A stretch of DNA of 63,485 nucleotides, the filler included, from Collodictyon triciliatum (Eukaryota): assembly GCA_043381765.1 (NCBI GenBank). It is 8 parts of 8 records of this genome, joined end to end, with 100 filler letters (N's around TTAATTAATTAA, not from the genome) between each part and the next. Parts side by side here need not be neighbours in the genome. Positions count along the whole stretch, not along the records: positions 34,792 to 46,271 come from JBHJMP010002396.1; 7 more parts are not named here. One strand, written 5' to 3'. Both the position numbers and the translations under genes were made by a program. A model generated the notes under the pieces. That model was given only the letters and a program-made list of their open reading frames with translations. It did not search any database and was not told the DNA's origin. Positions 2,093 through 58,542 of the stretch are shown here, piece by piece (position 1 is the first letter of the stretch; the number at the start of each line of letters is the position of its first letter).

Positions 2093-3139
2093 TTAAGCAG
2101 CGGCGGGGCGGGAGACCTTCTTGCCAACATCAGCGGAAGTCTCGGCGTGGAGCTCAAGGAGCTTGGCAACTACAGATAAATGCAGTGAGCGAGAGCCTAG
2201 AGATAAACATCAACTACAATAGTAAATTAACATGACAGCGCTCCACTCACCATCGAACTTGGGGGACTTGAGGATCTTGACCTTGCGGACGTAGACGTTC
2301 TGGAGGGGGTAGATACGGGATCCAGCCTTCTCGATCTGGCGGCCGATGGACTCGTTGATGAACTTCTTCACCAGAACCTTGAGCTCGGAGTGGCTGACCT
2401 CGCGGGTGATAATTTCGACCATCTTCTTGCGGATCTGCTTGATCTGGGAGGACTTTGCGTAGCAGGTCTTCTTGAGGGTGTTGGGGCGCTTCTTGGTGAA
2501 GGCGATGGTGAAGACGCGGACAACATAACCGTCCTGAGTCTTGACGTCGGCGTGAGCCTCGATCAGGGACTGCCACTTGCGGACAAGGGAGCGGAGCTGT
2601 GTTCAAGACTAAGTTAGCATAGAGGAACAGTGTGGAGGTGGAAGAGACCACAGACGAGCAAAAACACTTTTTGATAAGCACCTTGTCGGTGGTGAAGTCC
2701 ATTCCGTAGAAATTGGTGAGGCAGTTGCGGCCCTGGACCTCCTCGCATTTAAGCTTGATCTTACGGAAGCCGAAGTCCTCAGACTTCATGAGGTCTCCGA
2801 GGTTGACTTCGAAGACGCGTCCCTTGAGAGCCTCAGAGGCAATACCTAGAGATGTTCTCAGCTTATGTGGATGCCGGGTTGGAAGGCACAGAGCGAGTTG
2901 GACAATAGGTGCTACTTACGGGTACCAGTGGTACGGGTGACAATGGTCTTTCCGGCTTGGCGAACCTTGAAGGTGCTGGGGGCCTTGATGTCGTACCATT
3001 CCTTCTTGGTGAATGGATCGACGCTATAGGTAAGGCTTAGTTAATCTGCTGGATGATAACTCAAGTGGGGTATTACTCACATCTTCTTCTTGGAGGACTT
3101 TCCCTTCTTGGAGAGGCGCTTGTTTTTACCGACGGCCAT
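2093..3139 (-). CDS. RPS3A: 40S ribosomal protein S3a (eS1), 5 coding exons
   Basis: [19 protein letters not shown]|..[22 protein letters not shown]|..[101 protein letters not shown]; strongly biased codons. Confidence 0.98.
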
Positions 3140-10000: not shown

Positions 10001-10642
10001 ACTACTGTCCACAACATCGTGATTGGGTCCCTCTGGCTCACCCACCACGGAGAGATGAAAATTAAGAACCACGCAACAGGAGACACTTGCACACTGGAGT
10101 TCCACACAAAAGGCTGGTTTGGAAACACAACATTCCTGGTGACCGGCCAGATTTGCGACTCCCAAGAGCGACCAGTCTATTACATCTACGGCATGTGGAA
10201 CGAGTATCTCTCCTACTTGCCAGCCTCCGACGGACACGACCCAAACAACCCGGATGCCCCGTGGATTCGCATCTGGACCGTTCGCCCATTCCCGCCCGAC
10301 TGCGAGCAGTTCTACAACTTCTCATACTTTGCGATGAAGCTGAACGAGATTACGCCGGATCTGCGCGCGGTTTTGCCAGTGAACGACTCGCGTCTTCGTC
10401 CGGACCAGCGCCTTTTGGAGGACGGCGATTACGACCAAGCGACTGTGGAGAAGTTGCGGCTGGAAGAGAAGCAGAGGGAGATGCGACGTGCGCGCGAAAG
10501 AGCCGGGCAGGAATGGAGTCCGCTGTGGTTCAGGAAGCAGCTTGACCCGGTTCTGGAGACGGAGATCTGGGTCTACATGGACCAGTACTGGCAGAAGCGG
10601 GAGAGGAGAGACTGGGCGAATGTTGTGGACCTGTTTGCCTAG
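7063..10642 (+). CDS. Oxysterol-binding protein-related lipid transfer protein (PH domain + ORD)
   Basis: Likely start MSLLRSKTA|QSILG; PH motif KGIVWKWTNFMKGWRPRYF and ERDKWVEVL; ORD motifs SLWGVLKDAVGKDLSRITLPANWNEPLGSLQR, KPFNPMLGESYE, signature EQVSHHPP, DSRLRPDQR, EKLRLEEKQR; stop 10642. Confidence 0.95.
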
Positions 10643-11440: not shown

Positions 11441-11508
11441 GAAGTACAAATGAACAATACGAAGAGGTGTCAAACTTAAGTGAAAAAATAAGAAAAGAGA
11501 ATGGATAA

Positions 11509-11608
11509 NNNNNNNNNNNNNNNNNNNNNNNNNNNNNNNNNNNNNNNNNNNNTTAATTAATTAANNNNNNNNNNNNNNNNNNNNNNNNNNNNNNNNNNNN
11601 NNNNNNNN
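11509..11608. other. Artificial 100-nt contig spacer N44-TTAATTAATTAA-N44 (same at 23107-23206, 34692-34791, 46272-46371, 57850-57949, 60417-60516, 62359-62458)
   Basis: Identical fixed-length spacer with stops in all six frames, mostly flanked by low-complexity contig ends; genes are cut at it. Confidence 0.97.
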
Positions 11609-17284: not shown

Positions 17285-20200
17285 ATGGGCTTCCGCAGGA
17301 TCGCTGCTCTATGCGTTTTTATCTCCTGCGTTGTGGCTCCGGCGATCTTTTGCGGTTCTCATATCAACTGAAAATAGTCACACATGACACATATTAAACC
17401 ATACAAAATAGCATCAAATACTTATGTAATACTTATATAGTACATGGAAAATATAAAGGAAAAAAAATAGTACATGGAAAATAGACATTTAATAATACAA
17501 ATAGATTTGAAACACAAAAATACACACCGGTAATTGTATCAATGGTATACAGCGTCCTCATGGGAAAGTTTGACTGATAATCCAGTACCTGGATTCTACA
17601 ACACTGCTGCAAACGATGACCGCTACATTTACTATCTTGGTGACCTGTAGGGAAATATTTAACGAACAGCACCTTTTCTTGTATTGATGAAGTTCACCAT
17701 ACTAAATGTTTATTTCTCAGTTATAGCACGTCTACACAGCAGATTCATCAGAACTCATTCAGCTTGCTCTACATCTTTGACACAGGTTGAAAGATTTTTG
17801 TAACTTAAATCACACAAGTTCGATTGTTTACACGAATTGTAAATTCAACACATTCAGTCAGCCGAATATGGTCCAGCACACCTCTAACTGGCTCGGTCCC
17901 TGATCGGCGCTCAGAATATTCGCTTATATGTCACAAGAACAAGGTAGATTGTCTGCTTTACTCAGTTTTGAACTGCATGATGCTATAAAAACATAATATA
18001 GGAAATTAATATTAAAAATTTGAAGCAAAACGATAACAAAAAAACGATAACAAAAAAACGATAACAAAAAAACGATAACAAAAAAACGATAGCAAAAAAC
18101 GATAACAAAAAAAAACGATAGCAAAAAATCCAGAAAAATGATTATGTTCAATATAAAGCACAATTATACTTCAGTATGATATCGCCATTATTGAAAAATT
18201 CTCTTCAAATATTGTTTAATGTCAATGTGGGTCATTTATTTGACGTCTAATCAAGCAATCACCAATACACCTCATACGTTTACATAGCTTTATGTATTCG
18301 GGGGAACGACCACAGTGGAGCTTAATTCTGTGTACGCCCTGGATCTGGCCACAAAGTCATGGTCTCCTCTCTCTCCTGCTACCTCTGTACAACCAAGTCC
18401 CAGACGTACCAGTTTTAGTTTTGTGATGGACAACAAAGTGTTCTTCCGTGGTGGCTACTCCCAGCAAGCCTCAACAACACAAATCTATCAAGATTTGTGG
18501 TCTTTCGATCCCGGTATCTATACCTATATCTTATCTAATTTTTTATGACCCTAAAAACATAACTACATTTGAAGATAATGAACACCGAATAGACACCCTC
18601 CCTCGTTCCCCTCTCACTTCTTTGACCTAGATTTTCCATTATTATTACTATTCTACAGAGAAAAATATATGGAAGACGTACAATTTCACAAGTCCCACTC
18701 GACCGAATGTGTACTGGGGTGTAGAAGCTTATCACTACAGGACTCTCTACGTGTACAGCGGAAAGACAGTCTATTCATCTCTCGATCTTTGGGCTCTCAA
18801 TCTCGGTAGATTTGCTGCGATTCCTTTTTTTTTTTATTGCAAAAGAAATAATATAAATGAATGTAATGATTCATCTCTTGAATATGGATAGTAATTTGAT
18901 GAATTTTCCCCTATTTCCTTTCTGACTTTGTCTGGGTCCTCTTTTCTCTTTTTTCTTTTCGATTTTTTTTTTAAACCATACCAATTAAATCAGATACCCT
19001 CTCATGGAGCATCGTGATGACTGGAGAGATTCCTCGGCTCATGTCAGAGGCGGTTATTTATCAGAATAAATTCATTTACTTTGGTGGTTCCATGAGCGCT
19101 TTTATGTTTTCTGGGACATCTGATCTGAACGCAATAGACCTCGGTGAGTTTTGATAATCTTCCATTTATCAGTCAATGAAGCGGAATTTTACCAATTGAC
19201 GCAAATAATCGGTCCCTCAACATCAAGGCTCAAATAATTATTGATGCCCACAGCAGACATATTTCTTGAGCCTTTCGTAGTTGTTTTTGTCGTGATATGT
19301 AAAATTCAAGATATGTCCTCCTAATAATTGATATGTAAACCATCCTCCATAGGCAACTACACCCATACAGCCTCAACCAATTATATGAGCCAACCCGACT
19401 TTTACCGCTTTCCGTTTCAGTATCCATTGCCTAGGCTAAGTCACATAATGCGATTGGTTAACGGGAAAATTTACCTGGTAATGGGGAGGAGCTCAATAAC
19501 CTTGAATGATGTTTGGGTCTTGAACCCTGGTAATGCCCTCATTCAAGAAACAAAATTCCCCTCAAATTTACCACAATCCTATAGTCTATTCCTTTTCCCT
19601 CACTTTTCAATGCCCAATACTTTATAAGAACCTTCCTTGAGCTTGTTAATATTAGGGATGAGTAAGGAAAATATTTCATTTTCTCACAATATAATTGAGA
19701 ACCGAAAAATACGTTTTCTTTGGGTTTTAGATACATTGGTATGGGAATGGAATTCTTTGTCTTCACAGCCGCTTGCCAGAACACTTCCTGCGTATACTAA
19801 AATCGATGATAGCAATCTTGTCATCTTTGGAGAAGGCACCTCATCTAACAGATACCCTTTGAATGACCTTTGGAACTTCAATATTGGTAGTTTTCTGTGT
19901 GACATTCATAAATATGACGTGTTTGAGCCAAGCTATCTCATAGAAATAAATAAACGAGATGATGAAATTTATGTAACAAAAATCTCGGCGAAATAACAAC
20001 AGATACCAGAAAATGGACATGCATCCAAAGAGAGTCAACCTGCATACCGACCAACACAAGCTGTGTCCCACAACTTCTAAATCCGGTTTCTCCCTTCTCA
20101 ACATATAAAGTTTCCCCTTAACACAAGCATGTATTCCAGCAAACGGAAGGCACTTACTAAAATACTTCAATTATCATACAGTCTATAGCATATCACAACA

Positions 20201-22862: not shown

Positions 22863-23206
22863 GTATATATTGGATTGTCTCACTTCTGCTTCCTCTGCAT
22901 CATATGTTTTTGTTTTTGTCCTTGTTTTTGTCTTTGTTTTTGTTTTTGTTTTTGTTTTTGTTTTTGTTTTTGTTTTTGTTTTTGTTTTGTTTTTGTTTTT
23001 GTTTTTGTTTTTGTTTTTGTTTTTGTTTTTGTTTTTGTTTTTGTTTTGTTTTTGTTTTTGTCTCTGTTTCTGTTTCTGTTTCTGTTTCTGTTTCTGTTTC
23101 TGTTTCNNNNNNNNNNNNNNNNNNNNNNNNNNNNNNNNNNNNNNNNNNNNTTAATTAATTAANNNNNNNNNNNNNNNNNNNNNNNNNNNNNNNNNNNNNN
23201 NNNNNN

Positions 23207-24061: not shown

Positions 24062-27082
<3,021 letters not shown>

Positions 27083-34530: not shown

Positions 34531-34791
34531 GCGTAATTGCGAATACCTCTCTAGCAAGAGCTTTTTTCAAGTCATACACAGAGCGCCAGCGTCATATATT
34601 ACACTGCGCTAAACAAAAAACAAAAAACAAAAAACAAAAAACAAAAAACAAAAAACAAAAAACAAAAAACAAAAAACAAAAAAAAAAAAAANNNNNNNNN
34701 NNNNNNNNNNNNNNNNNNNNNNNNNNNNNNNNNNNTTAATTAATTAANNNNNNNNNNNNNNNNNNNNNNNNNNNNNNNNNNNNNNNNNNNN

Positions 34792-35031
34792 GCCACTATA
34801 TATTCGCACTATAATACCTGATGGCCAAGTCTTTGGATGTTTGGGATGAATTTCGAACAGACTCCGACTCAACAGCCACTATATATTCGCACTATAGTAC
34901 CTGATGGCCACGTCTTTGGATGTTTGGGATGAATTTCGAACAAACTCCGACTCAACAGCCACTATATATTCGCACTATAGTACCTGATGGCCACGTCTTT
35001 GGATGTTTGGGATGAATTTCGAACAAACTCC
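34792..35031. repeat. 83-bp tandem repeat, about 2.9 near-identical units, cut by contig start
   Basis: Units start at 34792, 34875, 34958 (GCCACTATATATTCGCACTATA...CTCCGACTCAACA) and differ by a few substitutions. Confidence 0.95.
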
Positions 35032-36527
35032 TATTTAACTAGCATTATTCTTTCACACGGTAATTTATTGAATTTAAAAGAGCAGGATGTAGTTTAAGGT
35101 TATATCTATAATTATATGTTGTTATTTATTATATTCTATTGTTTAAAATCATAAAAGATATTTTTTAGAATACTTACATGGGTATTCATATGAAGCTACC
35201 GTTTTTCTGGTAACTTTAACGATTGAAGATATTTTATGTTGGAGAATTTTCTTTTAGTCTTGTTTATTATTTGTATTAAAATAATTAAATTTGAAATTTC
35301 ATTTTAAATATTTATCATATTTAATATTTCGATTTTATGACTGATTTTAAGAAAAATCTGCGGATTGTGCTGAGACCTACTTTCTTATCATGCGATAATA
35401 AATAGGTTGATAGACAAATTTGATCTTTTTTATGATTTATATATTCGTGGGCTTACACTCCCTTTTAATCATAGGTAATTGTAATACTGTCCAGTGGCAT
35501 GAGCTCATCTGATAAATTTGCTATGTATCTCTATTTTTCCAACTAGTTTTAATAAATTTATCAAACTGATGTCGATTTAACTTTTATCAAAGAGAGGCTG
35601 ATAAGAGGGATTTGCCAAAACTATGCACAAAGAGAAGAACAGAACAAACCATGTATCCAGTTAAATTGATTTATTAGTATATTTCATCAATATTTATAGG
35701 AAAACTTAATCTTTTTTTTAACTTGTATTATGAGACCAAAATATTTTTTTTTACTTTTTACCAAATTTATGATATGATCACTAGGTTTTTGGTTCTTCAT
35801 CATGCAACACAAAAGCGCTTAACCGTTTGAAGGTCATTTTAGACTAACGTAAAATTTTATATTAATTTTCATTTTAAAACGGGAACTTATGTAAAGGCCT
35901 CCCTAAAATTATCTGAACTTAAATTTTATTGTACTTATCTATAATTAAAAGGAGGCTTTACAACGATACTATTGTTACTACGAAAGAAATAACGTTACAA
36001 AAAATGCCCGTCCGAAGTTTACATAGTTTAGTGTCATATATATCTTAATGTCCAAAATATCTGGCGGGTGCTGTTAAATATTTATTATTTTGTGGCGCAT
36101 TCATATATTTGGTTGCCGTGAGCACATTTTTATCCACGAAGTACCTCTTGAATAAAATGAAATTTAAGAGCATGTTCTAATAGCTGATTGAGAAGCATTA
36201 ACACATAAGCATGATTAGATATACAGGGTCAAAATAAATTTGATAGATTATATAACGCACAATTACGGACTGTTGTATTATTTTGGAATATCTATATTGG
36301 AATTTTAACTCTTCAATTATTCTTAAATCAATTTAAGATAATGATGTCATTTTTAATGATTTAAAAAAAAAAGAGTCTTTTAAAGTAACAAATACACCAA
36401 AACTCCAACCAAAAAAAGGAGATATACATAAATACCCAATTACTTATTCTCAAAGGCATGAGTGACTCAAAGTCAATCAAAATCAATTTACCATAAGATT
36501 ACTTAAAAGACTAGGAATTTTGAGAAA

Positions 36528-39500
36528 CATGTCTGCAACCGAAACAAGCACCGAGGCCAACGTCAGCCTTGTCACCATTGACGAAGTCTGTGCAAATGCA
36601 TACATTACCTTCAAGAAATTATTTATATGTCGAAGAGAATTGATTACTTAATCTGGCAACTGAGCACAGGCTGTCCTCGAATGGGTGAACCACCACCTGG
36701 AAAAAATCGACCTCAAGGCGAAGAACACCCGCGATGACTTAATGGACGGATTCTTTTTGGCCATGCTGATTGAGGCGGTTACCGGAAAGTCCTTGGGAAG
36801 TTACCATTCCCGCTTGTTTGCGTATGATTTATTTATGATACTCACAATTTTAATACAATTTATTTTTTCATGGATTTGTATTTGATCCCTTTATTTATAT
36901 CAGTGACAAAGTTATTGAGGAGGAGGTTCTTGTTGACGAGAATCAAAAACTCATCGTTGATTGGTTTCTGAAATTGAATGTGCATGATGAGACTGTTGCT
37001 TCTCAGTCTCGTTACGCTGGTTTGCTTTATATGTTTTAAAAGGAAATAATATTGGAATTTTTCATATATCATCCATTTATTTTGTATGGGTAACTGACGT
37101 ATAAATATTCTTACAGATTTGCTCAATGCAATGCTCCAGTACCTTATTGGGCAAAGTGTTGGCCATTTGGGAAGTCTTGGGGTAACAAAATACACCTCCT
37201 TTTAATCTTTCATATTTAAGGTTTTTTTTTAATTTTTTGAACCATGCCGAAATATAATTTCCAATCGTTAAAAATTGTAGAAAAAATGTCGTGAGAGGTA
37301 CGATATTGCCAAGAAGCTCTACGAAAGAGCGAAGGCCCCGTTTCCGTTCCATGGTTGAAATTCTACATCTTTTTATTTTTATTAATTTATTGTTTTGTAT
37401 TTACTTCTCAACTAAATTAAATTTAAATATTGATGCAGGTCTTGGTCTGGAAGAAAAAGGCTCTGTCGTACTCATCCGCACTTGCATTCTTCTTGACAAG
37501 GTAACTAATAATTAATAAATGAAATAAGAAAAATTTGACCAAAATCATTCCGTTTGGTGGAATATAATGTCCATTTCAAACCAGATGAAGCTTGCTCGTG
37601 AAGACCTGAAGGAGAGGCAATACAAGAAGTGGAATCCGGCTCCACAAAGATACCTGACACCGACACCATTGCCGCTCATTGTCTTTGACGAGCGTGTCAT
37701 CCGTGTTTTCCTTTCCTCCACTTTCCGTGACATGCAGAAAGAAAGAGACGAGTTCTTCAAGAATGGAGCCCCTGAGTTAGTTCAATATATTTTTATAATA
37801 AATTTATGATAAGGAACGATAATTTGATGTTTTTATTTTCCTTACAATATAAATTCAATGTCAGGTTGAAAAGACTTGCGAAATCATTGGGAGTGGACCT
37901 TGTCTTTATCGATTTGCGCTGGGGACTGACTTCTGTGGACAGTAGCGAGGGATGGGTAATCAGAATATTATTAACATTATTTTTGAAACTTTCATTATAC
38001 TGCAATTTATATAATAATGAACTTTAATTTTCTTTTCTTGCTTTGTTTTCATAGGTCGTGATTCGCTGCTTGGATTCCATCGGAAAATGCCCATACTTTG
38101 TGTGCTCTCTCGGTGCGCGCTACGGCTGGATTCCTGACCAGAACAAAACGGAGCTGAACAAGCAAGCCCGCCTTGAGCAGCTGCTGAATACCAAGCCTGA
38201 TGCTACCATGAAGGATGTTTGGGTGGAATGGCGCAGTGAAACGAATAGCCGCTTCCCATTCATTGACAGAATGCCTGGGTTGAGTGTGACTGAATACGAG
38301 GTGAAGCCAATCTCTACATTTTATTCTGTATCTTTTTATGAGTAATTACAATAGAGAAATTAAACCAATCATTTTCTAAATTATATATTCATATTAAGAT
38401 TCAACACGCCTGTCTGATTGACAAACCAGCATGCAGCCGCGCCTTCTTTTACCTCCGCGATGAGCACTATGCTGTCGAACATGCCCAGAGCGAGGAAGAA
38501 AGAAAGCTGTTTCAAGCTGAAAGCGAAGAGGCGGTAAAAATTGATAGAAATTCTTTAATCTTCATTTTCAAGTAATTATGTTATGTTTATTTAATGATTT
38601 AATTTTTTGACACTTGTTTTAATGTATTTTTTTAGCGTAAGAGGCAGGACGAGCTCAAAGGGAAAGTCAAGACCAAGTTCGGGCATGTTGTCTACAAGGG
38701 AGCGAAGGAGTATTCGGACTTTGTGACCTACCATCTCACCTACGCCATCGAGCGTGACTTTGGGAAGCAAACTGTAATTTTTATGGATTTATGGATATCA
38801 GTATTGATTGGTGATATGCATTTCATTTCATTTATATTTTGTTCTCATAACTATATCATAGGTGAGAGACCCTGAAGACCAAGCTCAGCACCAGTTCAAG
38901 ATGCATCGACTGGCTGGGTTTGGTGGAAGAAAGGAGCTTCTCAAGACAATTACGGAGCAAGTAAGATAAAGATCAATTAATTAAAAATGACAATAATATC
39001 TTTGATTTTTTTCTTATCAATAATTTTTTTTTATTAGGCCATGAATCAGCTGAGCACGGAGAAATCCAAAATCATCGTTCTTGCTGCCGAGTCTGGGATT
39101 GGAAAGTCGTCGCTCATGGCTGCTACAGCGAGAGACCTTGAAGGGTTGAAGCATCCTGGGCTGCATGTCTTTTTCCATTTTGTTGGATGCACCAATCTCA
39201 GCAACTACGTAGAAAGGTTAATTTCTATTTCTTTTTGTTTTTATAGATATAAAGATATTATTTTGGTTTTTCTAAAAATATTTGTTTTATATTAGTGTAT
39301 CGATTCGCTTCTGGACTTTGGTCGCAAACTCTGCCAACTTTGTCAGGGAAAAGAAGCAAGAAGCTGGTATTGTAATTAATTTTATTTTTATCTTTTTAAT
39401 CCAAATGTCGTATAACAATTCTTCAGGCATTTACTTTATTTTTACCACCAGAATACGAAAAAGAGGGACTCCAGGGCTTGCTGAAGATGATTCAGGAGAA

Positions 39501-42500
39501 AAACAAGTAATACGTCAATTTTTTTGTATTTAAATTATAAAATCAAAATTAAAAATATTTTGTTTCAAATAAAAAATTGATATTAAATTATGTTTTATAG
39601 GGACGAGAAGTTTGTCTTTCTGATCGATGCCATCAACCAAATCCACCCGTCGCAAGGAACGCCAGCTCCGCATCTGCTGACCTGGTTGCCCAAAGAAACG
39701 CCAGCTAATGTTGCCATTGTTGTGTCGACCATTCATACCCATGAATCTTGCGCGGTATTTATCATTTAATAATATTTTTTGGATATTTTTATATTCTGCA
39801 TAAAAATGATTTGAGTGGAAGGTTAATTAATCTATATGTGTCATAAGTCTGCCAAGCAAAGTGGACTGGAGCCGATTCCTGTCGCCAAGTTGACCGAGGG
39901 CGAAATTAAGGATGGTGTCGAATCCTTCCTCATTCGCTATGACAAGACCCTGAACGAAAAGCAAGTTGGAATGATTCTGGCTGACTTTGAAGATACTGGT
40001 GAGACATTTTTTCAAAAGAATATATTTTTATTAAATTTTTTCAAGGTATGATTTAGTTATACTTATCTAATATTTTATTATAGGCCATCCGCTCTATCTC
40101 CGCATCATTCTGGATGAAGTCAGGGTCTTTGGAGTCTATGAGAAGCTTGACGATGAACTGTTTGCGCTGCTTTCAACCAACGGTGTCATCGAGCTTTACA
40201 CTCTCATTATCCAGCGCTGGCAACTGAAGTTTGACAGGAAAGGTGAGTATTGATTTCATATTTCACAAAAAAAAAAATTACAATTATAATTGCTATTTTT
40301 GTTGAATGAATCTTTTTTATTGTACAGTCTCCTCGTCTGATGGAAAAGAGACAATGAAGGTCGAGTATGTCTCCCTCTCGATGAAGGTTCTCTTTGTCTC
40401 CCGCATCGGTCTGAGTGAAGTTGACTCGGACAAGTACATGAAAGACGCGATTGGCGCAGGATTCGAGCTTGCTGAATGGTTTGCTTATTCTTGAATTTTA
40501 ATAGAATTAATAGGTTAACTCTTATCTCATTTTCTTTTTTATTTAACTTATCTTTTATTCATTAAAATAGGAAATCCTTCTTCTTTACCCTCATCGAGTC
40601 GCTTTTCGTGCGCAATGGAAGGTTACTTTTATTTCTCAATCCTTTTGTTAGTTAATCTGTGCTTTCTGTATAATTATATTTGGATAAAAACTCAATAATT
40701 GCGTATCATAGATATATGTATTTCCACCAGCTGCTGTTGGAGACCACCAAAAAGGTCTACTTCACCGAAAACCAGGAGATGGAAAAAACCCACGAAAAAT
40801 ACGGAAAATGGCTTTTTGGCCAATATTCTGAGGCTGCCGACGCAGGTGAGGAGCTTGCTGCTGAAATATGCTACCAGCTTCTGAAGGGCAGTTCGTTTGA
40901 CTTGCTTGTGGAATACATGAAGCAAAAACATGTGATTTTTTTATTTAATTATTTTCAGTCATTATGAAACGGCATTCACTGATTAATTTTTAAAAAAATT
41001 TTAGGTTATCAGCATCATGCTTGGTGGCCGCTATCGCTACGAGTTCTTTACATGCTGGAGAGCAATCAACGCAAGTGGAGCGGCAAACTACAAAGATGCC
41101 TATGGAAGCTTGGCTAAGGTTATTTACTATTTAATTTTAATTTTTTGAAAGTTACTACTCACAAATTTAATTATCAATCATGATTTATCTATTAATTTTT
41201 TTAAAATTTTCAGTCTTTGGATAATGTGGGAGACCTGCTGGTTGGATTTTTCCTGGAGTCTTTTGAGAATTCGTTCTTGTTATCTGTTCTGAATGTGCGT
41301 CTTGGAAAGCATCAAACAGAAGGTATGCAACTTATTGTTATTTTTTGAAGAATTTAAGTCATGAATATGATTTTATATATGGATATATTCAATAATCTAT
41401 CAATTTACAGATGCGAAGGCTGCTGATTACCTGAATCTTGGTCGTGTCTACAAGAACCTCCAAAAGTATAAAAATATAAAAATCCATTAATGATTATAAT
41501 TAGGACATGACATGATGCTTATAATGCTAACTTTTCTAAAATAAAATAAAAATAAACAGCTGGGCTGAGTCCATGGTCTACTACAAGAAATGCCTCAATT
41601 CAGTTGAGAAAAATGCAGATGACTCCTTGCGTATCGCTACCATCCATGAAGAAATGGGAATAATCTACCAGCAACAGGACAAGTCAGGCTCTCTTTCAAC
41701 TGTAAAATAAATAATGAATAATGTTTCAAAAAGGAATTATTCTGATTTGCTTATTATGAAACAGAATTGATGAAGCTCTTGATGAATACAAGAAATCACT
41801 GGAATTGAGAATCAAACAACTGGGCGAGAACGACTTGCAAGTGGCCCAATCATATGACCGCTTCGGAGACATATATGTGAAGCAGTCAAAGTAATAATTG
41901 ATTCATCTATATTCGTTTTTTTTTTTTTGCCTTTATTTTGTAAATATATATGTATGCTGATCAATTTTTTATGATAGGAATGAGCAAGCTCTGGTTGAAT
42001 ACACAAAGGCCATGGAAATTCGCCAAAAGAAAGTCGGAAACGAGCATCCTCTTGTCGCAACATCGTACCAGAACTACGGCCATGTCTCTCTGGCTGGGAA
42101 AAAGTATCACATATTCATTCGATTCAAACTGGTTTTAAATCAATTATGATAATTTTGATAAATATTAATATGATTGAATCATCAAGGTATGAAGAGTCTA
42201 TTGAAAACTACGAGAAGGCGAAATCAATCCTTGAAAAATCGCTGGGAGCTAAGCATGCATCTGTTGCCTCGACAATCCAGTTTATTGCGAGTGTTCATCT
42301 TGCCAGTGGAAAGTTTGGATTTCTAAACTACAGATAATTTCATAAAATAATTATTTCTTTCAATTTTTGCAAAATGAGTTTGGCTTCATATATTTCATTT
42401 ATATGGACTCTATTTGGAGTTAATTTTATTATATAATATAATCAATTAAATAAATATCAAATAAATATCGTCTTATATAGGAAAAGTGAGGCCTTGTCCT

Positions 42501-45500
42501 CATTAAAGCAATCGCTGGATATTTTCATGTCTGCCTTGGGTGAAAATCATCCGAATGTTGTGGCCTGCTATGAGATGATTGGAGACATCAGCCATGATTT
42601 GAAGGAGTATCTCTTTTTATAAATTATTTTTAATATTTAATTGAAAACAATAATGTATTTACTCACATTATCCTAGCTTTAAGGATGCTCTGGAGGCCTA
42701 TACAAAGACGCTGGATATTCGCGTGAGAACACTGGGCGAAAGACATGCTGATTATGCTACTTCCCTGGAGAATGTTGGCCGAACAAACTTTGAGCTTCAA
42801 AGGTAGATTTCTCTATTATATTCATTAATCGAATATTTTTATTAATAGTTATAAAAAACAATACAAATATGAACTAATATGCATGCATTTAGATTGGACC
42901 AAGTCGTTGAATACTTCCATAAGGCAGCTGCTATCAGAAAGGAGACAAAGACTATCATATCACTGAAAGTTGGTTTACAGATTGACAACATTATCCGATT
43001 CATGAAGGATAAGAAAGAGCACGAAATCGCTTCTTATATGTACAAAAAGCTTATGCATTTATTCAGCAAGCTTTACTCCATGGATTATCTTGGACTATGG
43101 AACAGCTGCAAGGAAATTGACAAGATTTACAAGAAACTGAAGCAGCATAACGAAGCTGTGGCATTCTGGACTGAGATGAGAGACATGTTTGCTGATAAAC
43201 TCGGATGGATTCACCCCAGAACATTAAACTCGTGCGAATACTTGTCCGTCCATTCAAAGGAAATCGGAATCAACAAAGAGCCTACCGAGTTTATAAGAGT
43301 CAAGGAATTCATCAGTGAAACTCTTGATGATGCAAAACTAGATGAGGAGTGGAATTGTGAGCAAATAATTGTATTATCATTCAGAATTGTCTACATGTCA
43401 AAGACTGATGAAAGCAAATCAAAGGCTGCGTCTGATGCAATTACACTTTTGAATTTCATGAAAGTTTCGTTCGGTGGAATGGATTTATCAAACATCAAAA
43501 TTCCACATGCAAATCTCAGTAACTCAATCCTTGACGGTGCAAACTTCGCTGGTGCCAACTTGTATGGCGTTGATTTCACAAATTCGATGCTTGGTGATTG
43601 TGTTTTTGACAATCCGAATATGAGTAATGTGAAATTTGGATTTCTGAATGATAAATTTGAAGGACATACAGATCGTGTCATGAGTGTTTGCAGTTTTCAA
43701 GGACCGAATTGTGAAGATTGGCTGGCTTCTGGAAGTAGAGATAAAACAATACGCATTTGGGATGTAGCCACAGGGAAACAAATCAAAACATTAAATGGAC
43801 ATACAAACGACGTCTGGAGTATCTGCAGTATTCAAGGACCGAATGGTGGAGATTGGCTGGCTTCTGGAAGTAGAGATAAGACAATACGCATTTGGGATGT
43901 AGCCACAGGAAACCAAATCAAAACATTAAATGGACATACAAATTCTGTTATGAGTGTTTGCAGTATTCAAGGACCGAATGGTGAAAAGTGGCTGGCTTCT
44001 GGAAGTATGGATAAAACAATACGTATTTGGGATGTAGCCACAGGAAATCAAATCAAAACATTAGAAGGTCATGCAGATGGTGTCACCAGTGTTTGCAGTA
44101 TTCAGGGGCCGAATTATGAAAAGTGGCTAGCTTCTGGAAGTTATGATAAAACAATACATATTTGGGATGTAGCCACAGGAAATCAAATCAAAACATTAAA
44201 TAGACATACATGTGAAATCTGGAGTGTTTGCAGTATTCAAGGACTAAACGGTGAAAATTGGTTGGCTTCTGCAAGTGATGATAAAACAATACGTATTTGG
44301 AATGTGGCCGCAGGAAACCAAATCAAAGAATTAATAGGTCATACAAAAGGTGTCAGAGGTGTTTGCAGTATTCAAGGGCCGAATGGTGAAAGGTGCTTGG
44401 CTTCTGGAAGTGATGATAAAACAATACGTGTTTGGGATTTGGCGACAGGAGACGAAATTAATAAACTAGAAGGTCATACAGAATCTGTCAGTAGTGTTCG
44501 TAGTATTCAAGGACCGAATGGTGAAAGTTGGTTGGCTTCTGGAAGTGATGATAAAACATTACGTATTTGGGATATAGCCAGTGGAAACGAAGTTAAAATA
44601 TTAGAAGGTCATACAAGTAATGTCACTAGTGTTTGCAGTATTCAAGGACCGAATGGTGAAAATTGGTTTGCTTCTAGAAGTAATGATAAAACAATTCGTA
44701 TTTGGGATGTAGCCACAGGAAACCAAACACACAGCCTACAAAAATCAAAAGTAACCTGCACCCAAGGAAAATATCTTGTCAACAAAGAAAAGCCAGACGA
44801 AGTCATCGCAGTATTCAACAGAACAAGTGATGCGATGAACATGATTGATTCCAACAGAATCCAAGATTCAAAGACAGTCCAGATTATCGGCCCAAGAAAG
44901 CTGCAGGGTGGAAACATCCAAATTAGAAATGTCACAGGGTTGAGTCGATTCAACAAAACCATTCTACTTACAATCGGAGCTGCTTCCTTTGATACAGGCT
45001 TTGCTTCCTATTGTGAGCAGGGTAAGTTCACCAAGTTCCAGGCTCAAATGATGGCTGAGTGCTATGAGAATGGATGGGGTATTGAGGAAGACATCGAGAA
45101 GGCAGCTGGGTGGTTTATAAAGGCTGGAAACTTGGAAAAACCGAAGCAACTCGCACAACAAGGTTCAAAAGAGGTATTCAATGTTTTGAAAGAAATGGCT
45201 GACGTGAAGGAAAATATCATGGACATATGGAGAAGAAAAATTGGTGAAAAACACAAATATCCGAAGGCTGTTTCCATCGTTGCAGAATGCTACGAGAATG
45301 GATGGGGTGTTGAAAAAGACACCATGAGAGCAACTGAGTTGTTTGGAAGGACTGAAAACTTTGACAAGCTGAAGGAACTTGCACAACAAGGCTCAAAAGA
45401 GGCATTCAATATTTTGAAAAAAAAGGCTGAAATGAAGGATAACGTTGGTAGATATGATGAAAAATGCAAATATCCACAGGCTGTTTCCATCCTTGCAGAA

Positions 45501-45776
45501 TGCTATGAGAATGGATGGGGTGTTGAAAAAGACACCATGAAAGCAACTGAGTTGTTTGGAAGGACTGAAAACTTTGACAAGCTGAAGGAACTTGCACAAC
45601 AAGGCTCAAAAGAGGCATTCAATGTTTTGAAAGAAATGGCTGAAATGAAAACATGGGATAAAAAACTCAAATATCCACAGGCTGTTTCTATTGTTGCTGA
45701 ATGCTATGAGAATGGATGGGGTGTTGAGAAGGACACCGAGAAAGCAGCTGAATGGAGACAGAAAGCCTCAGCTTAA
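36528..45776 (+). CDS. NLR-like STAND protein: CH domain - DUF4062 - NACHT/AAA-like NTPase (NPHP3/TEP1-type) - TPRs - pentapeptide repeats - 8 WD40 - 4 SEL1-like repeats
   Basis: CH-like VLEWVNHHL..DDLMDGFFLAMLIEAVTGK; DUF4062 IRVFLSSTFRDMQKERD..IDLRWG..CPYFVCSLGARYGWIP..SVTEYE|IQHA; Walker A AESGIGKS; Walker B FVFLIDAINQI; GHPLYLRIILDEVRVFG; 42-aa TPRs (LGENHP type); terminal coding exon 42893-45776. More than 20 introns in the 5' two-thirds; phases of exons at 37.1-37.5 kb not fully resolved. Confidence 0.88.
43662..44726 (+). repeat. Eight tandem 135-nt (45-aa) high-identity WD40 coding repeats
   Basis: GH codons at 43662, 43797, 43932, 44067, 44202 (RH), 44337, 44472, 44607; consensus GHTxxVxSVCSIQGPNGExWLASGSxDKTIRIWDVATGNQIKTLx. 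Confidence 0.97.
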
Positions 45777-47088
45777 CAAGGTAAGTATCATAATAAATAC
45801 ATATTGATATATGTTCGTTAACTATAATCATTTTAGATGGAGAGATTCTCTGGGTTTTTTTCAAGCAGACCTCCGCTTTTTTCCCACAAGGACGCTCCAT
45901 GAAAACAGAATAAAACCATAAAAATGAAAGCAAAGCTGATCAATCTGTTGAATCCATTTTTCCTTTTTCGTTTTTCCTTTTTCTTTTTTTCTTTTTTCCT
46001 TTTTTTTCTTTTTCTTTTTTCCTTTTCTTTTCTTTTTTCCTTTTCTTTTCTTTTTTCCTTTTCTTTTCTTTTTTCCTTTTCTTTTCTTTTTTCCTTTTTT
46101 TTCTTTTTCTTTTTTCTTCTTTTCTTTTTCTTTTTTCTTCTTTTCTTTTTCTTTTTTCTTCTTTTCTTTTTCTTTTTCTTCTTTTCTTTTCTTTTCTTTT
46201 TTCTTCTTTTCTTTTCTTTTCTTTTTTCTTCTTTTCTTTTCTTTTCTTTTTTCTTCTTTTCTTTTCTTTTCNNNNNNNNNNNNNNNNNNNNNNNNNNNNN
46301 NNNNNNNNNNNNNNNTTAATTAATTAANNNNNNNNNNNNNNNNNNNNNNNNNNNNNNNNNNNNNNNNNNNNAATAAAAAATAAAAAATAAAAAATAAAAA
46401 ATAAAAAATAAAAAATAAAAAATAAAAAATAAAAAATAAAAAATAAAAAATAAAAAATAAAAAATAAAAAGAGAAGAAAAGAAAAAGAGAAGAAAAGAAA
46501 AAGAGAAGAAAAGAAAAAGAGAAGGAAAGAAAAAGAGAAGGAAAGAAAAAGAGAAGGAAAGAAAAAGAGAAGGAAAGAAAAAGCAAAAAAAGCAAAAAAG
46601 CAAAACCAATAAACGAATAAATGGAACATGAATAATCTTAAACAAAAAAACTGTGCGTTGTGAGTTCCAAAGGGCAATCCAACTTTTTGGAAGAGAGGAG
46701 AGGAAAGAGGGCATACATGAATCAGGTTACAGTATAAAACAGAAATTAGGGAAGCAATCACCTCCATGTGATATTTCATTTTTTGATAGATTTTCCCCTC
46801 CAACTCCATGCTTTATCACAACCCCATAAAACCCAACCGAAAGTAATCAAGAGACATACAAAACTCATCCACATATATTGAGACATTCGTTTATTTCTCT
46901 TCGCTGCTGAATACAGGCTTCTGCAATCTGTTCCGTGCGCTGACAGATGGTTCTGTAGACGCCTAAGTGTTATAATTGCTCTTTCATTTCATATTGTAGT
47001 GCGATTGACAAATAATATCAAAGCAATACCAAAACTCGCAGCAATCAAATCTTGAGGAGAAGCCTCCGGACTGCAGTAGAACATGAAA

Positions 47089-50000
47089 TCACAATCCGGA
47101 GCCTTCCAAGTGCGCTTGAGTTCGCGTTGGTGTCTCTTTTTCATTCAACCGGGTCATATGGGGTTGTATGTCTCTGGTGATTACAGTATCTGTTTCTCTT
47201 CGTTCAACCAATTTTGTAACCCGAGAAATCTCTGCTCTGTTCTTTGTAAACACCACCGCCCCGATGGTCAGAAAACCTGCTAACCCGACGCATCCGAGCA
47301 AACCGTAAAGAAGCTTCATGAACATTCCTCCACCTTAAATATTGAACATTAATAGACCGAAAAGCTTAAAAGTTATTGTTGAATGATTTAAATAAGATTT
47401 TCCAATACTGGCACTGGTACGTATGAATATACAATTCACCTTGGTGCTCGTTTCTGCCGCTGAAAATTCCGATGTTTTTAAGTCTGCCATCCGCGATGGC
47501 GCTCTCTAAGTCAGCTGCAATCTTTGACGGCTTATTTTCAAGGATGTAAATCAGCATAAATCCGCAATTCGATAGCATATAAAAAAAATTACAATGTTTC
47601 TGAAAGCCTCGAATATACGTTTTTTTTTTTTTTTTGTTCTAACGTATGATTATAAATATATTACCTCCCACTCATTCGATTCACAGACGCTCACCGACAA
47701 AGCGGGAGAGCCATTCTCAGTCAAAATATCCAAAGGTGACACGTACAGAGAGTTCCTCGGGACACCAAGTTCTTCCGCCACCTTCTCCAATAGGCCATAT
47801 GTTTCCTTTTTAAAGAAGGAATCGTTCTCTAGCAAGTCGAAAAGTGTCTCATTTTCGTTTCTTTCCGATTGAAGCAATTTTGCGAGGGCTGGGTTCTGCT
47901 TCTCTGATATAGGTAAAGTGACCGCTTTTGTACTGGGCCAAAGTCTCTTCGTTATGCTAGTTATGAGTGGATATCCAGATGTAAAGTCGTCTAAATCCAT
48001 AGCCCATACCATACCACCGCCCATACCCCTTGAGATTAGATAATCCACTTTGGCCTCGAGTGAGCTTTGGTTGTCAAAAGAGACCCACTGGTTTCCGAGT
48101 GTGAGAAAAGGGACTCGACGGGCTTTATCGTAAAAAACCCTGGCCTTTCTACTTATCATCGTTTGTATCTCATACCAAGAAAGAAATCCAGCTTCCCCTG
48201 TGATAGTTCCAGCGGTTCCAGGCCCTGATGCCGGAGCTCCCATTTTGCGATTGTTTGGATCCACTAAATGAGGAGTTCAATAATATTTAGGTTAGGCTAG
48301 CAGATTTATAGATATGCATTTATTTTTGTTTGTAATGCGAAATTAAAACTAGTGAATCCGAAAGACAATCACCTAAGGTCCAGGAACGTCCATACGTGGG
48401 CAATCCAAGGACAAGTTTCGATCGAGGGACTCCCTTACATTATGAATGATAGAAATATTCAAAACAATCGGAATCTCATGTGAAATATTTTCTTTTCATC
48501 TCTTAATGAAATCAGAAGAATAAACAAATGCGATACCCCCTTCATCCACGCTTTCACTGCGCTGTCGATATTTAAGGTAGATTGAGGGTCATACAAAGGT
48601 GAGTTTGCACCAGTAACAGACTCCCAAGAGCCATGAAAATCGTAAGTCATCAAATTGATAAAGTCCACTGTGATATTTTGGTATAAGTTTTAGAAACGGC
48701 GGGGTGTTTTCCTCATCATCAAAACCATTAAATGGATTGATTAAATCAAGATGTATTATCGGATGTCTCCATTAAATTGTGTACGATTACTTACAATAGG
48801 GATGTATATTAGGAATATCGTATCCAGCTTTTATTTGCGACAGTCCTGATGGAGCAGCAATTGTGAGAAGCAGCCTCCTTTTCCCCTTTGGTATGGACTC
48901 TGCGTTTATTGCAGCTCGGAACTCTTTCAGAAGCAGGGGAAAATTCTGAAAATCTCTTGCTTGTCCGCCCTACAAGAAAAGGAAATTAATCTATTATGAG
49001 AGATTCAAAGTGACTGCTAAAAAAATCCTATAAAAAACCCTTGGTACGGTTTCAAAGGAGTAATTTCTTCCCTATATTCGATTCAAAGTGCAACAGGGTC
49101 ATGTCATACAAAGAGTTTCAAAGGATAAATAGATAGTCAATATTAGTCAATTCAAGGAGACCTGGTCCGGCCAACCAGGATATTCCCAATCGATGTCTAG
49201 CCCATCGAAATTGTTTTGTCGCAGGAACTTGATTGCATTTGTGATGAATGTGGCTCTATTTTGAGTCGTAGAACACATATCCGAAAATATCGTCTTCGTC
49301 GCTGTGAAGTAATTGAAATTCCATCCACCGATGGAAATCAATGTTCTTAAATGCGGGTATGTAGACTTCAGACTATTCCAGTAGATAATCATTCAATAAA
49401 CATAATATGACAATTAAAAAGCCACACACTATTGAATTGATAGTATATATCTAAACATTCCTGCTAAACATGCCCAAACTCACATATTCCATAAAAAATT
49501 ATTTATGTGACCAAGAGATTCTTGATATAATATATACTTATTGAATCTTTGGTACATCCCTTGGGTGTAATCAAGAATATCGTTCCATTCGTAAGGTTGG
49601 ATGAGCCAAGTGCCAGCCTCAACTTTGGCGAATGCGAAGTTGAGATGAGTGAATAGATTACCATTCACATTCTCGGGAAAGAACTTGTATTTTCCGTTTG
49701 CCGCCGAGCGATACTGTGACCAATTAGTGTAATATCCAATCATTCTCTAGTCGAAGAAGAGATTGTTTAATGTTAAGAGTTATTGATATCAGTAATATAA
49801 TATAAATAATTATCTTGGTTTCTAGGCTCATGCATTTTATATAGTCCAAAAGTATTATGACAAAAAAATTGATGCATTAATGGGTAATTACGTATTTGGA
49901 GCTTAAGGTTGTAATTCGATTCATTTGTTCTAAACCATTAACCCCTATTAACATCGACTCTCCGACCAACTTCGAGCAGCTCTTGCAGTCTTGTGGGCAA

Positions 50001-57346: not shown

Positions 57347-58542
57347 GTAAGTTAGTCAATACTATGCTCAGCAATTCTTTAATGACATAACCTCGCTACA
57401 CTTTGAATCGAATAAAGGAAAAAAAATGTTCAGCAATTCTTTACGTGAAATAAAACTATGTTGTAAAGTATATTTAATAGCATTATTTTTTTTTTTTTTT
57501 TACATTTGTGCCAAATCATGGGGAAAAAATGCATTCATTTGTTTACACACCTAGACATCATTATTAAATGTGGGGGCATCTTCTGGTCGTAGATATGATT
57601 CGGTATGCATTTTGGCTATACGGAAGATATTTTGAGTTTCACGACTCTTGATGTAATATCCTCTGTTTAAACTCTTCACATTTCTACAAATATGTCTCCT
57701 AACTAAATTGTTTTTTTTTTTTAATAAATAAATAATTCCAATCAGCAATTCGATTTTCATGCTGCTGCTGGTTAGTATAATTAATATAATATATTTCCCT
57801 AAAATCTTCAGACTACAAGTCACTTTTTTTTTTTTTTTTTTTTTCTTTTNNNNNNNNNNNNNNNNNNNNNNNNNNNNNNNNNNNNNNNNNNNNTTAATTA
57901 ATTAANNNNNNNNNNNNNNNNNNNNNNNNNNNNNNNNNNNNNNNNNNNNCCACGTGGATGCAAAAGACCGAGAGCGCAAGCATCGCGGCATACGCCCCGA
58001 TAACCTCCGGTGTTTCCGCCACGGATGCGATCATGTGTGCGATCTGTCTCTGCTTATTTTTTTTGTTTTTTGTTTTTTGTTTTTTGTTTTTTGTTTTTTG
58101 TTTTTTGTTTTTTGTTTTTTGTTTTTTGTTTTTTGTTTTTTGTTTTTTGTTTTTTGTTTTTTATAATCCCTGATTTTAACCATGCGACGCCGTGTGGGCG
58201 ATCCAGAAACAAGTCTGACAAGATAAGCAACCAAGAAGTAGGTCTGAAGCTCAAGTGGCAGACTCTCTTTCCTTTCCACCCTAACCCTTTCCTTTCTCCC
58301 CACAACCAACAAATGCGCGTGATTCTTTTCTCCTCCTTTCATCCTCTCATTCGTTCAATACAAACACTTGTATCTCCACCTGCGAGTTCAACCCTTGTTG
58401 GCAGTCTCGATGCGCTGTGCGCAGGTACAAGTCATCTACTGCAAGACTGAGTCATCGTGCGATGCGGCATCCATGAGCGGGACACGAGTGCGTCTTTTCC
58501 AATATACGTTTCTTTTATTCCGTGCGCCTGCTTGACACATGG

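Follow-up and report, generated by a model that had tools for sequence, protein, structure and literature searches.

The last exon of a gene in a 63,485-nucleotide stretch of Collodictyon triciliatum DNA (assembly GCA_043381765.1), referred to here as the window, encodes eight WD40 repeats that share recent nucleotide ancestry, and two codons of the repeat, with a third at the borderline, have changed between the copies much faster than the silent sites have. The explanation towards which we lean, with modest confidence, is that this array would be the ligand-sensing propeller of a switch of the STAND/NLR type, in which hotspots on the top face have been diversified on a homogenised scaffold.

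Tandem Repeats Finder (TRF) reports an array of period 135 at 43660-44727 with 7.9 copies, 82% matches, 0% indels, and a score of 1253. Cut at 43662 on the plus strand, it resolves into eight in-frame units of 45 codons each (43662..44741, + strand; delimited by TRF, unit translation, Pfam WD40, AlphaFold, and Foldseek). The blades start at 43662, 43797, 43932, 44067, 44202, 44337, 44472, and 44607, and each unit is one complete blade with strands A-B-C-D. Pfam WD40 matches the array in eight stretches (E 1.6e-77), and a ninth 135-nucleotide frame (44742-44876) is unrelated to the eight units. A first-pass annotation made from the sequence had counted eight 135-nucleotide repeats, and both TRF and translation bear this out. 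Its residues for the motif GHT-x-x-V-x (DR/M, ND/W, NS/M, DG/T, CE/W, KG/R, ES/S, and SN/T) and for SGS-x-D (R, R, M, Y, D, D, D, and N) agree with the unit translation and the per-codon table, and the codons that it cited (GAT CGT, AAC GAC, TGT GAA, and AAA GGT) are correct. It had also described long near-identical stretches of DNA, which overstates the likeness of the units: over the 28 unit pairs, nucleotide identity averages 80.4% (range 75.6-88.9%), and the longest exact runs common to units measure 40, 35, and 30 nucleotides. Units 1-4 and units 6-7 are the closest sets by nucleotide identity. In total, 68 of the 135 nucleotide columns are polymorphic, 15 of the 45 codon columns are invariant by amino acid and 8 by codon, and the mean amino-acid identity of the 28 pairs is 0.70.

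What the first-pass annotation said of synonymous sites is, on the other hand, supported, and this sharing is position-specific. Where two units have the same amino acid in the same column, the codon is identical at a frequency of 0.846 (831 pairs), as against 0.480 for the same amino acid in different columns (3217 pairs) and 0.397 expected from codon usage in the remainder of the exon. Serine is AGT in columns 8, 11, and 25 and TCT in column 23; isoleucine is ATT, ATA, or ATC according to column; and Ala36 is GCC in seven of the eight units, a codon that makes up 4% of the alanine codons in the exon remainder. Position-specific choice of synonymous codons shows that the units share recent common descent, and their likeness is due to that descent and neither to protein constraint nor to codon bias. 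The pooled Nei-Gojobori mean of synonymous divergence (dS) among the units is 0.34, far below saturation.

Comparison with homologues indicates when, in relative terms, this likeness arose. When the exon's non-WD part was used as query in a profile-free HMMER scan, three homologues that cover this part were found, namely P0025 (1219 residues, a partial EukProt transcript), P0123 (2619 residues), and P0122 (2520 residues). P0025 is 41% identical to the exon product over 747 residues with two gaps, and its eight blades align blade to blade with those of the window without a gap; P0123 has approximately 19 units of this type, each of 45 residues, and shares with the window the GPNGE insertion of the A-B loop. 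Within-array amino-acid identity, which is 0.70 in the window, is 0.34 in P0025 (8 units) and 0.41 in P0123 (18 units). Columns 11, 13, 16, and 36 are free to vary in the homologue arrays (mean pairwise difference 0.71-0.95) and invariant in the window, and columns 4, 5, 7, 19, and 26 have a diversity of 0.86-0.93 in the window, equal to that in the old homologue arrays. Each blade of the window resembles all of the P0025 blades about equally, and blade-by-blade orthology to P0025 is not significant, as the diagonal is matched by 4392 of 40320 permutations. In a tree of 34 blades, those of the window need three changes, compared with a mean of 7.3 for shuffled labels, and none of 500 shuffles is as low; in an LG+G4 quick tree from which two degenerate terminal homologue blades were removed, the eight window blades form one clade with a Shimodaira-Hasegawa-like approximate likelihood-ratio (SH-aLRT) support of 85.5. 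The homologues have the 45-residue unit in common with the window, and their blades have diverged much further; this comparison supports homogenisation that is probably specific to the lineage of the window.

Other ways of collecting homologues were less productive. A protein search with the whole exon was swamped by generic cyanobacterial and fungal WD40 proteins, and only 1 of the 120 listed (P0025) shares the non-WD parts. A search with residues 1-263 gave six pentapeptide proteins, none of them of this family, and its word index missed P0122 and P0123. A census of units in the homologues by regular expression was discarded as too strict (1 unit in P0001), and units in a fixed register were used instead. 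In addition, P0223, a protein of 891 residues from the representative library with NACHT-like, pentapeptide, and WD40 parts, has units of approximately 45-46 residues, one pair of which is 89% identical, and internally similar WD arrays may be common in this wider group.

Against this homogenised background, seven codons of the unit are variable, namely codons 4, 5, 7, 19, 26, 43, and 45, with 6, 6, 5, 5, 5, 5, and 4 different residues, respectively, among the eight units. The list in the first-pass annotation comprised codons 4, 5, 7, and 26; it missed codon 19 (NGE-x-W; D, D, K, K, N, R, S, and N from blade 1 to blade 8) and did not have codons 43 and 45. The five codons with the most variation differ alike at codon positions 1, 2, and 3, by 0.59 per site, and in the other 40 codons the difference per site is 0.18, 0.07, and 0.20 for these positions in turn. 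Pooled nonsynonymous divergence (dN) at codons 4, 5, 7, 19, and 26 is 1.30, and the other 40 codons have a dS of 0.32 and a dN of 0.125. Codon 6, a valine between the hypervariable codons 5 and 7, is GTC in six of the eight units; codons 25 and 27, which flank codon 26, are identical in DNA in all eight; and codon 28 is lysine throughout. The tetrad residues His2, Asp27, and Trp33 and also Ser23 and Ser25 are present in all eight units.

Whether the variable codons exceed the silent rate was addressed with site models in our own implementation of the GY94 type, run on an IQ-TREE codon tree with a codon model of single-base steps only. The one-ratio model M0 gives an omega (dN/dS) of 0.48 over the eight units. 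M2a (log-likelihood -623.68) is favoured over M1a (-631.50) with a likelihood-ratio statistic of 15.6 (p 4e-4), and places an omega of 19 on 4.9% of sites; a posterior above 0.5 is reached only by codons 5 (0.999) and 7 (0.994). Per-site tests, which took branch lengths from 38 background codons and set the nonsynonymous rate of each codon against the global silent rate for two topologies, gave the following values: codon 5 has an omega of ~19 (p 2e-6, Bonferroni p 1e-4), codon 7 an omega of ~35 (p 6e-6, Bonferroni p 3e-4), and codon 26 an omega of 25-30 (p 0.001-0.004, Bonferroni 0.05-0.2 over the two topologies). Thus, codons 5 and 7 exceed the silent rate and codon 26 is borderline. To correct for the post hoc choice of codons, neutral evolution of all 45 codons was simulated along the fitted tree. 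When this tree is scaled by 0.6-0.7, so that the mismatch of simulated silent codons equals the observed 0.154, none of 600 simulations reaches the nucleotide divergence seen in the top five codons, and 0-2% reach their amino-acid diversity. Overall, the simulations provide moderate, not overwhelming, evidence for an excess over the silent rate.

In the predicted structure, codons 5, 7, and 26 would lie on one face. For residues 254-633 of the exon product, an AlphaFold2 model made from a 34-row alignment has a mean predicted local distance difference test score (pLDDT) of 92.4 and a predicted template modelling score of 0.88. Each unit contributes four of its 32 strands; numbered within the unit, strand A spans 6-13, B 19-25, C 30-34, and D 40-44. 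The best Foldseek matches are eight-bladed propellers, with Tako8 first (target template modelling (TM) score 0.90), followed by ODA16, Rsa4/Notchless, and Fbw7; for the seven-bladed WDR5 the query TM is only ~0.59. Tako8 is also the best PDB sequence match of the array (E 1e-98). The model thereby shows the eight complete blades closing into an eight-bladed WD40 propeller. In WD40 topology the D-A loop and the B-C turn make up the top face, and the A-B and C-D loops the bottom. The assignment of faces made here combines this textbook topology with the strand order of the model and is topological rather than a measured geometry. Because codons 45 and 1-5 lie in the D-A loop of the model and codons 26-29 in its B-C turn, both stretches would fall on the conventional top face. 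It follows that the predicted top face includes codons 45, 4, and 5 (D-A loop), codon 7 (the second residue of strand A), and codon 26 (the start of the B-C turn), and that codon 43 would be close to the top end of strand D.

A published rule for top-face hotspots names positions of the motif (V/L/I)-R1-R2-(V/L/I) together with D-1, the residue preceding the tetrad aspartate (Wu et al., 2012, PMC3419727, in the part that states the rule). Applied to the 45-codon unit, it makes codon 5 R1-2, codon 7 R1, and codon 26 D-1. In blade 1 the x-V-x triplet, comprising codon 5, the valine of codon 6, and codon 7, is at 43674..43682 (+ strand; per-codon table and per-site rates); in every blade it is offset by +12 to +20 from the blade start, and codon 26 is at +75 to +77 (43737-43739 in blade 1, + strand; per-codon table). 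The three outstanding codons are exactly the three a-priori hotspots, for which the chance among 45 columns is 1 in 14,190. Around the ring from blade 1 to blade 8, D-1 is Arg, Arg, Met, Tyr, Asp, Asp, Asp, and Asn, and R1 is Met, Trp, Met, Thr, Trp, Arg, Ser, and Thr. This order suggests that the hotspot residues are polarised round the ring and would form an asymmetric, partly charged binding face. Glutamate is also present, in blade 5 at codon 5 and in blade 7 at codon 4.

The rest of the gene provides the context in which such a face might act. The last exon (42893..45776, + strand; 2884 nucleotides, 961 codons and a stop) lies within an open reading frame at 42873-45776, with its acceptor AG at 42891-42892. 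The preceding GT...AG intron spans 42804-42892, with its donor GT at 42804-42805, and this junction agrees with the alignment to P0025. In order, the exon encodes a helical linker, pentapeptide repeats, the eight WD40 blades, a linker, and Sel1 repeats. The pentapeptide repeats (43452..43637, + strand; Pfam Pentapeptide E 4.8e-14, and Pentapeptide_4) occupy residues 194-255 of the translation of 42873-43661, just 5' of blade 1. Upstream, TPR_12 is matched by five plus-strand exons at 41760-41891, 41961-42146, 42185-42334, 42437-42619, and 42654-42803 (Pfam E 1e-6 to 9e-5 per exon), which are just below Pfam gathering thresholds and collinear with the TPR region of P0123. The NACHT/STAND NTPase exons (39038..39766, + strand) include a P-loop, AAESGIGKSS, in 39038-39292 and a Walker-B-like FVFLIDA in 39587-39766; as fragments they give NPHP3_N, AAA_16, and NACHT at E 0.002-0.004, with a second NACHT piece at E 0.06, all below gathering. 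In P0123 the corresponding scores are 25.7 bits for NACHT (cut-off 26.7), 24.9 for nSTAND1, and 23.3 for NPHP3_N.

Immediately N-terminal to the NACHT domain are three exons of DUF4062, a TIR-like domain (37702..38342, + strand, i.e., exons at 37.7-38.3 kb before the P-loop exon at 39.04 kb). Pfam matches profile positions 1-19 at E 5e-4 and 46-73 at E 4.4e-5; these exon matches are below gathering, and DUF4062 of P0123 scores 42.5 bits, above its cut-off of 24.7. The most upstream part recognised is a CH domain exon (36664..36882, + strand; Pfam CH E 3.5e-5), which tblastn aligns to residues 189-260 of P0123; in the N-terminal 928 residues of P0123 that were scanned, CH reaches 43.6 bits, above its cut-off. 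All of these upstream exons score below gathering because they are fragments of domains. The exons at 36670-42610 are collinear with residues 189-1332 of P0123. Taken as exon-level matches rather than a full splice model, the predicted architecture is CH, DUF4062, NACHT, TPR, pentapeptide, WD40 x8, and Sel1. No paralogue of the gene is present elsewhere within the window, and Rfam and tRNA scans of the window gave no matches.

The third DUF4062 exon (38055-38342) has a single PDB sequence match, the TEP1 TIR-like domain (11gz_A), to whose GRSVTEMEV the GLSVTEYEV at 38270-38300 (+ strand) aligns weakly (E 1.6). From this alignment we infer that the catalytic glutamate would be within the SVTEYEV motif, numbered to E1008, and the DUF4062 effector domain may be catalytically competent.

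The stretch between the NTPase side of the protein and the propeller is itself widespread. The junction at 43380-43640, with the pattern AASDAITLLNF..F.G.DLSNI.IP.ANLS followed by pentapeptide repeats, occurs at 42-57% identity in many long proteins, including P0127, P0139, P0177, P0191, P0223, P0248, and P0264. Of 12 junction proteins scanned, four have NACHT above the cut-off (P0139, P0191, P0248, and P0264) and nine have a WD40-type beta-propeller; P0248 has leucine-rich repeats and P0170 has ankyrin repeats and WD40. The junction therefore looks like a reusable adaptor that may connect an NTPase to interchangeable repeat sensors.

The C-terminal part of the exon has a history of its own. 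Four Sel1-like repeats with the motif ECYENGWG occupy 45039..45773 (+ strand; Pfam Sel1 E 1.4e-23), and TRF finds in them a tandem of three repeats of period 213 (45245..45751, + strand; 88% matches). Over 67 codons, the DNA of copies 1 and 2 agrees at 91.5%, with a dS of 0.098 and a dN of 0.088, and this pair is more recent than all pairs of WD units; copy 3 is older (dS 0.5-0.75). This tandem is a second, independent recent duplication in the exon and has no obvious pattern of hypervariable sites.

By analogy with characterised proteins of similar layout, the gene product is most likely a switch that joins an effector, a nucleotide-oligomerisation domain (NOD), and a sensor, with the WD40 propeller's top face as the ligand sensor. 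Turnover of tandem units, whether by unequal crossing-over, by contraction and re-expansion, or by gene conversion, would have homogenised the blade scaffold in the lineage of the window, and selection would afterwards have diversified the contact residues of the top face to yield an asymmetric binding surface. Binding of a ligand at this face would release oligomerisation of the NACHT domain and thereby activate the N-terminal DUF4062 domain, as in Apaf-1 and in the proposal for TEP1 and the NWD proteins. The ligand could be non-self, in immunity or allorecognition, or an endogenous signal. A bolder version is that the gene is an NLR-type non-self receptor of a unicellular non-fungal eukaryote, with a DUF4062 NADase as effector, NACHT as switch, and a diversified WD40 surface on a constantly homogenised scaffold; the strategy of HET-E would then have arisen independently of or before fungi and been linked to an NAD-depleting effector, a kind that bacterial and animal immunity also employ. 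This bolder version we consider unlikely.

Several observations weigh against a diversified sensor. The NACHT domain is below the Pfam gathering threshold both in the exons of the window and in P0123. Codon 19 is the first residue of strand B, which by the strand order of the model puts it at the bottom end of the blade, and it looks neutral. Moreover, codons 4, 19, 43, and 45 have an omega of 2-3 in the per-site tests, with a one-sided p of 0.05-0.09, and are compatible with neutrality. The first-pass annotation had envisaged a ligand-binding surface under diversifying selection, with dN/dS above 1 at the variable sites and those sites on one face; this stands for codons 5 and 7, and in borderline form for codon 26, all of which are top-face hotspots, and does not stand for codon 4, nor for codons 19, 43, and 45 as regards rate or for codon 19 as regards its face in the model topology. 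At the unscaled tree length, neutral simulations reach the top-five amino-acid diversity in 30-35% of cases and the nucleotide divergence in 2.8%, so that the nonsynonymous excess depends on the calibration by silent sites. All of the statistics are carried by 8 units of 45 codons from one gene copy and one haplotype, and our site-model code assumes a tree, whereas recombination among units inflates such tests. In the 34-blade tree the blades of the window are not a strict clade, as one P0123 blade intrudes and blade 6 lies outside. A Sawyer-type test for conversion tracts is not significant (global p 0.059 for the best pair, units 3-4, with a run of 22 concordant polymorphic sites), and the turnover process therefore cannot be named: reshuffling by unequal crossover or gene conversion, as had been suggested earlier, is supported to the extent that homogenisation is lineage-specific and does not find support in conversion tracts. 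Finally, the internal amino-acid identity of 0.70 is below the ~85% of the nwd genes of Podospora, by the figure that Dyrka et al. (2014, PMC4986451) give for these genes.

Some of these points are also what would be expected if the array were simply a young tandem amplification under relaxed constraint, whose exposed loops drift neutrally without positive selection or any role as a receptor. We think this improbable. The near-neutral omega of codons 4, 19, 43, and 45 and the behaviour of the uncalibrated tree both agree with it, these positions also rank with the most variable ones of the homologue arrays (Spearman 0.47 and 0.44), and the recent duplication of the Sel1 units in the same exon (dS 0.098) marks the gene as duplication-prone. 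Hu et al. (2017, PMC5587647), where they discuss the origin of highly repetitive WD40 proteins, likewise see them as young duplications. Drift alone, however, accounts poorly for codons 5 and 7, which stand ~19-fold and ~35-fold over the silent rate after Bonferroni correction and on both topologies, for the preference of M2a over M1a, and for the failure of all 600 silent-calibrated simulations to reach the top-five nucleotide divergence; it would also be expected to have touched positions 11, 13, 16, and 36, which are free in the homologues but have not drifted in the window.

A different account, to which we give rather less credence than to drift, takes the hypervariable codons to be older and not faster: conversion would homogenise the scaffold while selection kept old blade-specific residues, and dN above dS would reflect depth of coalescence. 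Site tests cannot distinguish faster codons from older ones, and the gapless alignment with the equal blade number of P0025 means that the ancestor may already have had eight blades. A few residues are shared between blades 6 and 7 of the window and blades 6 and 7 of P0025 (RVWDLATG and the leucine of DK(T/S)LR), with residual diagonal identities of +0.04 and +0.05. Overall orthology between blades is nevertheless not significant, and by eye codons 4, 5, 7, 19, and 26 match the same P0025 blade only twice, at D of codon 4 in blade 1 and R of codon 7 in blade 6. The mosaic test is not significant either. Codon 6 and codons 25 and 27 show little or no DNA difference between units, so that any conversion tract would need to leave out individual codons, and it is mechanistically unlikely that older sequence was kept under conversion. 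That the array could be a mis-assembled or collapsed repeat mixing paralogues or reads is very improbable indeed. The assembly is certainly fragmented, since the window consists of contigs joined by linkers and contig ends are in microsatellites, but the array is 8.9 kb from one end of its piece and 1.5 kb from the other, is part of a single uninterrupted frame of 961 codons, has exactly eight units as in the gapless P0025, and folds in the model as a closed eight-blade propeller at the pLDDT given above. Differences between its units recur every few bases, at 68 of 135 sites, and make a collapse unlikely. The diversified sensor on a homogenised scaffold accordingly remains the reading that we prefer.

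Linkers of 44 N, TTAATTAATTAA, and 44 N join the contigs at 11509-11608, 23107-23206, 34692-34791, 46272-46371, 57850-57949, 60417-60516, and 62359-62458, as read directly from the sequence, and TTAATTAATTAA puts a stop in each of the six frames. Pieces one to five have nearly the same length (11,478-11,508 nucleotides), and most joins abut microsatellites. As the window is made of joined contigs, genes across linkers are not established neighbours; the gene described here is wholly within the piece 34792-46271. Short GT-AG introns and abundant microsatellites are found across the window. An 83-nucleotide tandem repeat (34792-35031; 2.9 copies, 98% matches) stands at the start of this piece, ~1.6 kb upstream of the first recognised exon. 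The 3' flank, at 45957-46271 and 46372-46598, is nearly pure microsatellite, with ~300 nucleotides of (TTTTC)n followed by (AATAAAA)n and (AAAAGAAAAAGAGAAG)n, and these repeats probably explain the break in the assembly. Exon-sized open reading frames with Pfam matches occur on other pieces at 2247-2912 (-), 8689-10639 (+), 19628-19993 (+), 26273-26863 (-), 47650-48273 (-), and 61250-61864 (-). The matches on these pieces are Ribosomal_S3Ae (RPS3Ae), Oxysterol_BP, kelch, SRP54 N and GTPase, Glyco_hydro_18 (a chitinase), and a BD-FAE alpha/beta-hydrolase (an esterase), by which the genes are classed as ordinary eukaryotic ones. Proteins from protist transcriptomes are the closest database matches of the organism. 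An exon of the oxysterol-binding protein on the first piece has its best match in a EukProt transcript (74%), followed by CFRG7888T1, with the prefix of Creolimax, at 44%, and by liverworts, krill, and Capsaspora at 38-41%; this series is too flat to fix a lineage and gives a weak lead towards a holozoan or ichthyosporean-like protist.

Among known systems, the array has its closest evolutionary parallel in the nwd genes of Podospora. For these genes, Paoletti et al. (2007, PMC1805685), in the sections on repeat evolution, report positive selection at codons 7, 9, 25, and 27, purifying selection at codons 8 and 26, which these flank, concerted evolution, and variation in repeat number. That WD40 repeats of the HET-D/HET-E type combine concerted evolution with positive selection, as the first-pass annotation had it, agrees with that source. 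When a three-residue insertion in the A-B loop is allowed for, codons 5, 7, 26, and 28 of the window unit are the counterparts of codons 7, 9, 25, and 27 in the HET-E unit, which has 42 residues. Three of the four HET-E-like specificity positions (5, 7, and 26) are thus the same, but the fourth selected position is an invariant lysine in the window array. As in HET-E, HET-D, and HNWD, a STAND NTPase, here a putative one, precedes internally similar WD40 repeats, variation is concentrated in x-V-x and x-D-x, and site models give an omega above 1, as far as the published accounts of these genes describe them. Unlike HET-E, the unit has 45 and not 42 residues, TPR, pentapeptide, and Sel1 parts are added, and the host, by a weak placement of the taxon, is probably not a fungus. 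No HET domain was matched in the upstream exons of the window, which have CH and DUF4062 instead, or at the N-terminus of P0123, which has CH, DUF4062, and NACHT only. The gene is thus an analogue, and not a homologue, of HET-E.

Surveys of repetitive WD40 proteins lead to a similar placement. Dyrka et al. (2014, PMC4986451) set the bar for high internal conservation at >85% identity across 100 residues or more, which 21.6% of WD repeats of fungal NLR proteins and ~1% of repeats generally reach; at a shift of one unit, the window array reaches this level only in its best 100-residue window (86/100), the whole array being at 0.717. Highly repetitive WD40 proteins as delimited by Hu et al. (2017, PMC5587647) have an internal identity of at least 0.7 and number 305, of which 50% are bacterial and 36% fungal and none is from animals or plants, and by that survey their hotspot sites are diverse while other sites are conserved. 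The identity of 0.70 puts the window array at the borderline of this class, with the proviso that the measures of identity may differ, and its dense tetrads and diverse hotspots are those of the class as the survey outlines it. The portions of that survey concerned with hotspots and repeat identity contain no codon-level selection analysis, unlike the present work.

For the domain context, the closest known parallels are animal proteins. According to the relevant passages of a recent preprint (10.64898/2026.05.01.722283), DUF4062 is a TIR-like NADase family that adjoins NACHT in human NWD1, NWD2, TEP1, and NPHP3. Purified NWD1, NWD2, and NPHP3 were assayed alongside TEP1; the activity described in these passages is that of TEP1, in which it requires E1008. 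The authors speculate there that the WD40 part of TEP1 senses a signal, upon which NACHT oligomerises and the TIR-like domain becomes active (10.64898/2026.05.01.722283). As in these four proteins, so far as the preprint lays out their domains, DUF4062 in the window is directly upstream of a NACHT NTPase; in the four proteins WD40 (NWD1, NWD2, and TEP1) or TPR (NPHP3) follows, and the window's SVTE-x-EV aligns, weakly (E 1.6), to the SVTEMEV of TEP1 near the reported catalytic glutamate. Unlike any of them, the gene joins TPR and WD40, adds CH, pentapeptide, and Sel1, and has homogenised blades. Apaf-1, one of the PDB entries that the array matches by sequence (3shf_A, E 1.9e-50), offers a mechanistic model in which a STAND NTPase is restrained by C-terminal WD40 repeats until a ligand frees oligomerisation. 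It differs in having an NB-ARC and not a NACHT-type NTPase, a CARD effector, and 7+8 diverged blades without homogenisation. Tako8, Fbw7, ODA16/DAW1, and Rsa4/Notchless are the nearest solved structures by sequence and fold and share neither function nor domain context with the window protein; Tako8 was designed artificially, with perfect symmetry, and Fbw7 binds its ligands through residues of the top face (Wu et al., 2012, PMC3419727, in the part that treats this example).

Searches of open-access text for NACHT and NLR genes in ichthyosporeans and holozoans gave no description of such a receptor in unicellular holozoans. If the locus varies among isolates and its DUF4062 domain turns out to be an NADase, the gene would offer a tractable candidate for an effector-NOD-sensor receptor of immunity or allorecognition in organisms other than animals, plants, fungi, or bacteria. 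In fungal NLR-like genes, the pairing of concerted evolution with diversified hotspots in WD40, ANK, and TPR sensors has already been worked out, and the general pattern is in print from the surveys of highly repetitive WD40 proteins. The locus in the window carries the same signature in a different architecture, and is a well-supported example of this known evolutionary pattern rather than a new kind of system.

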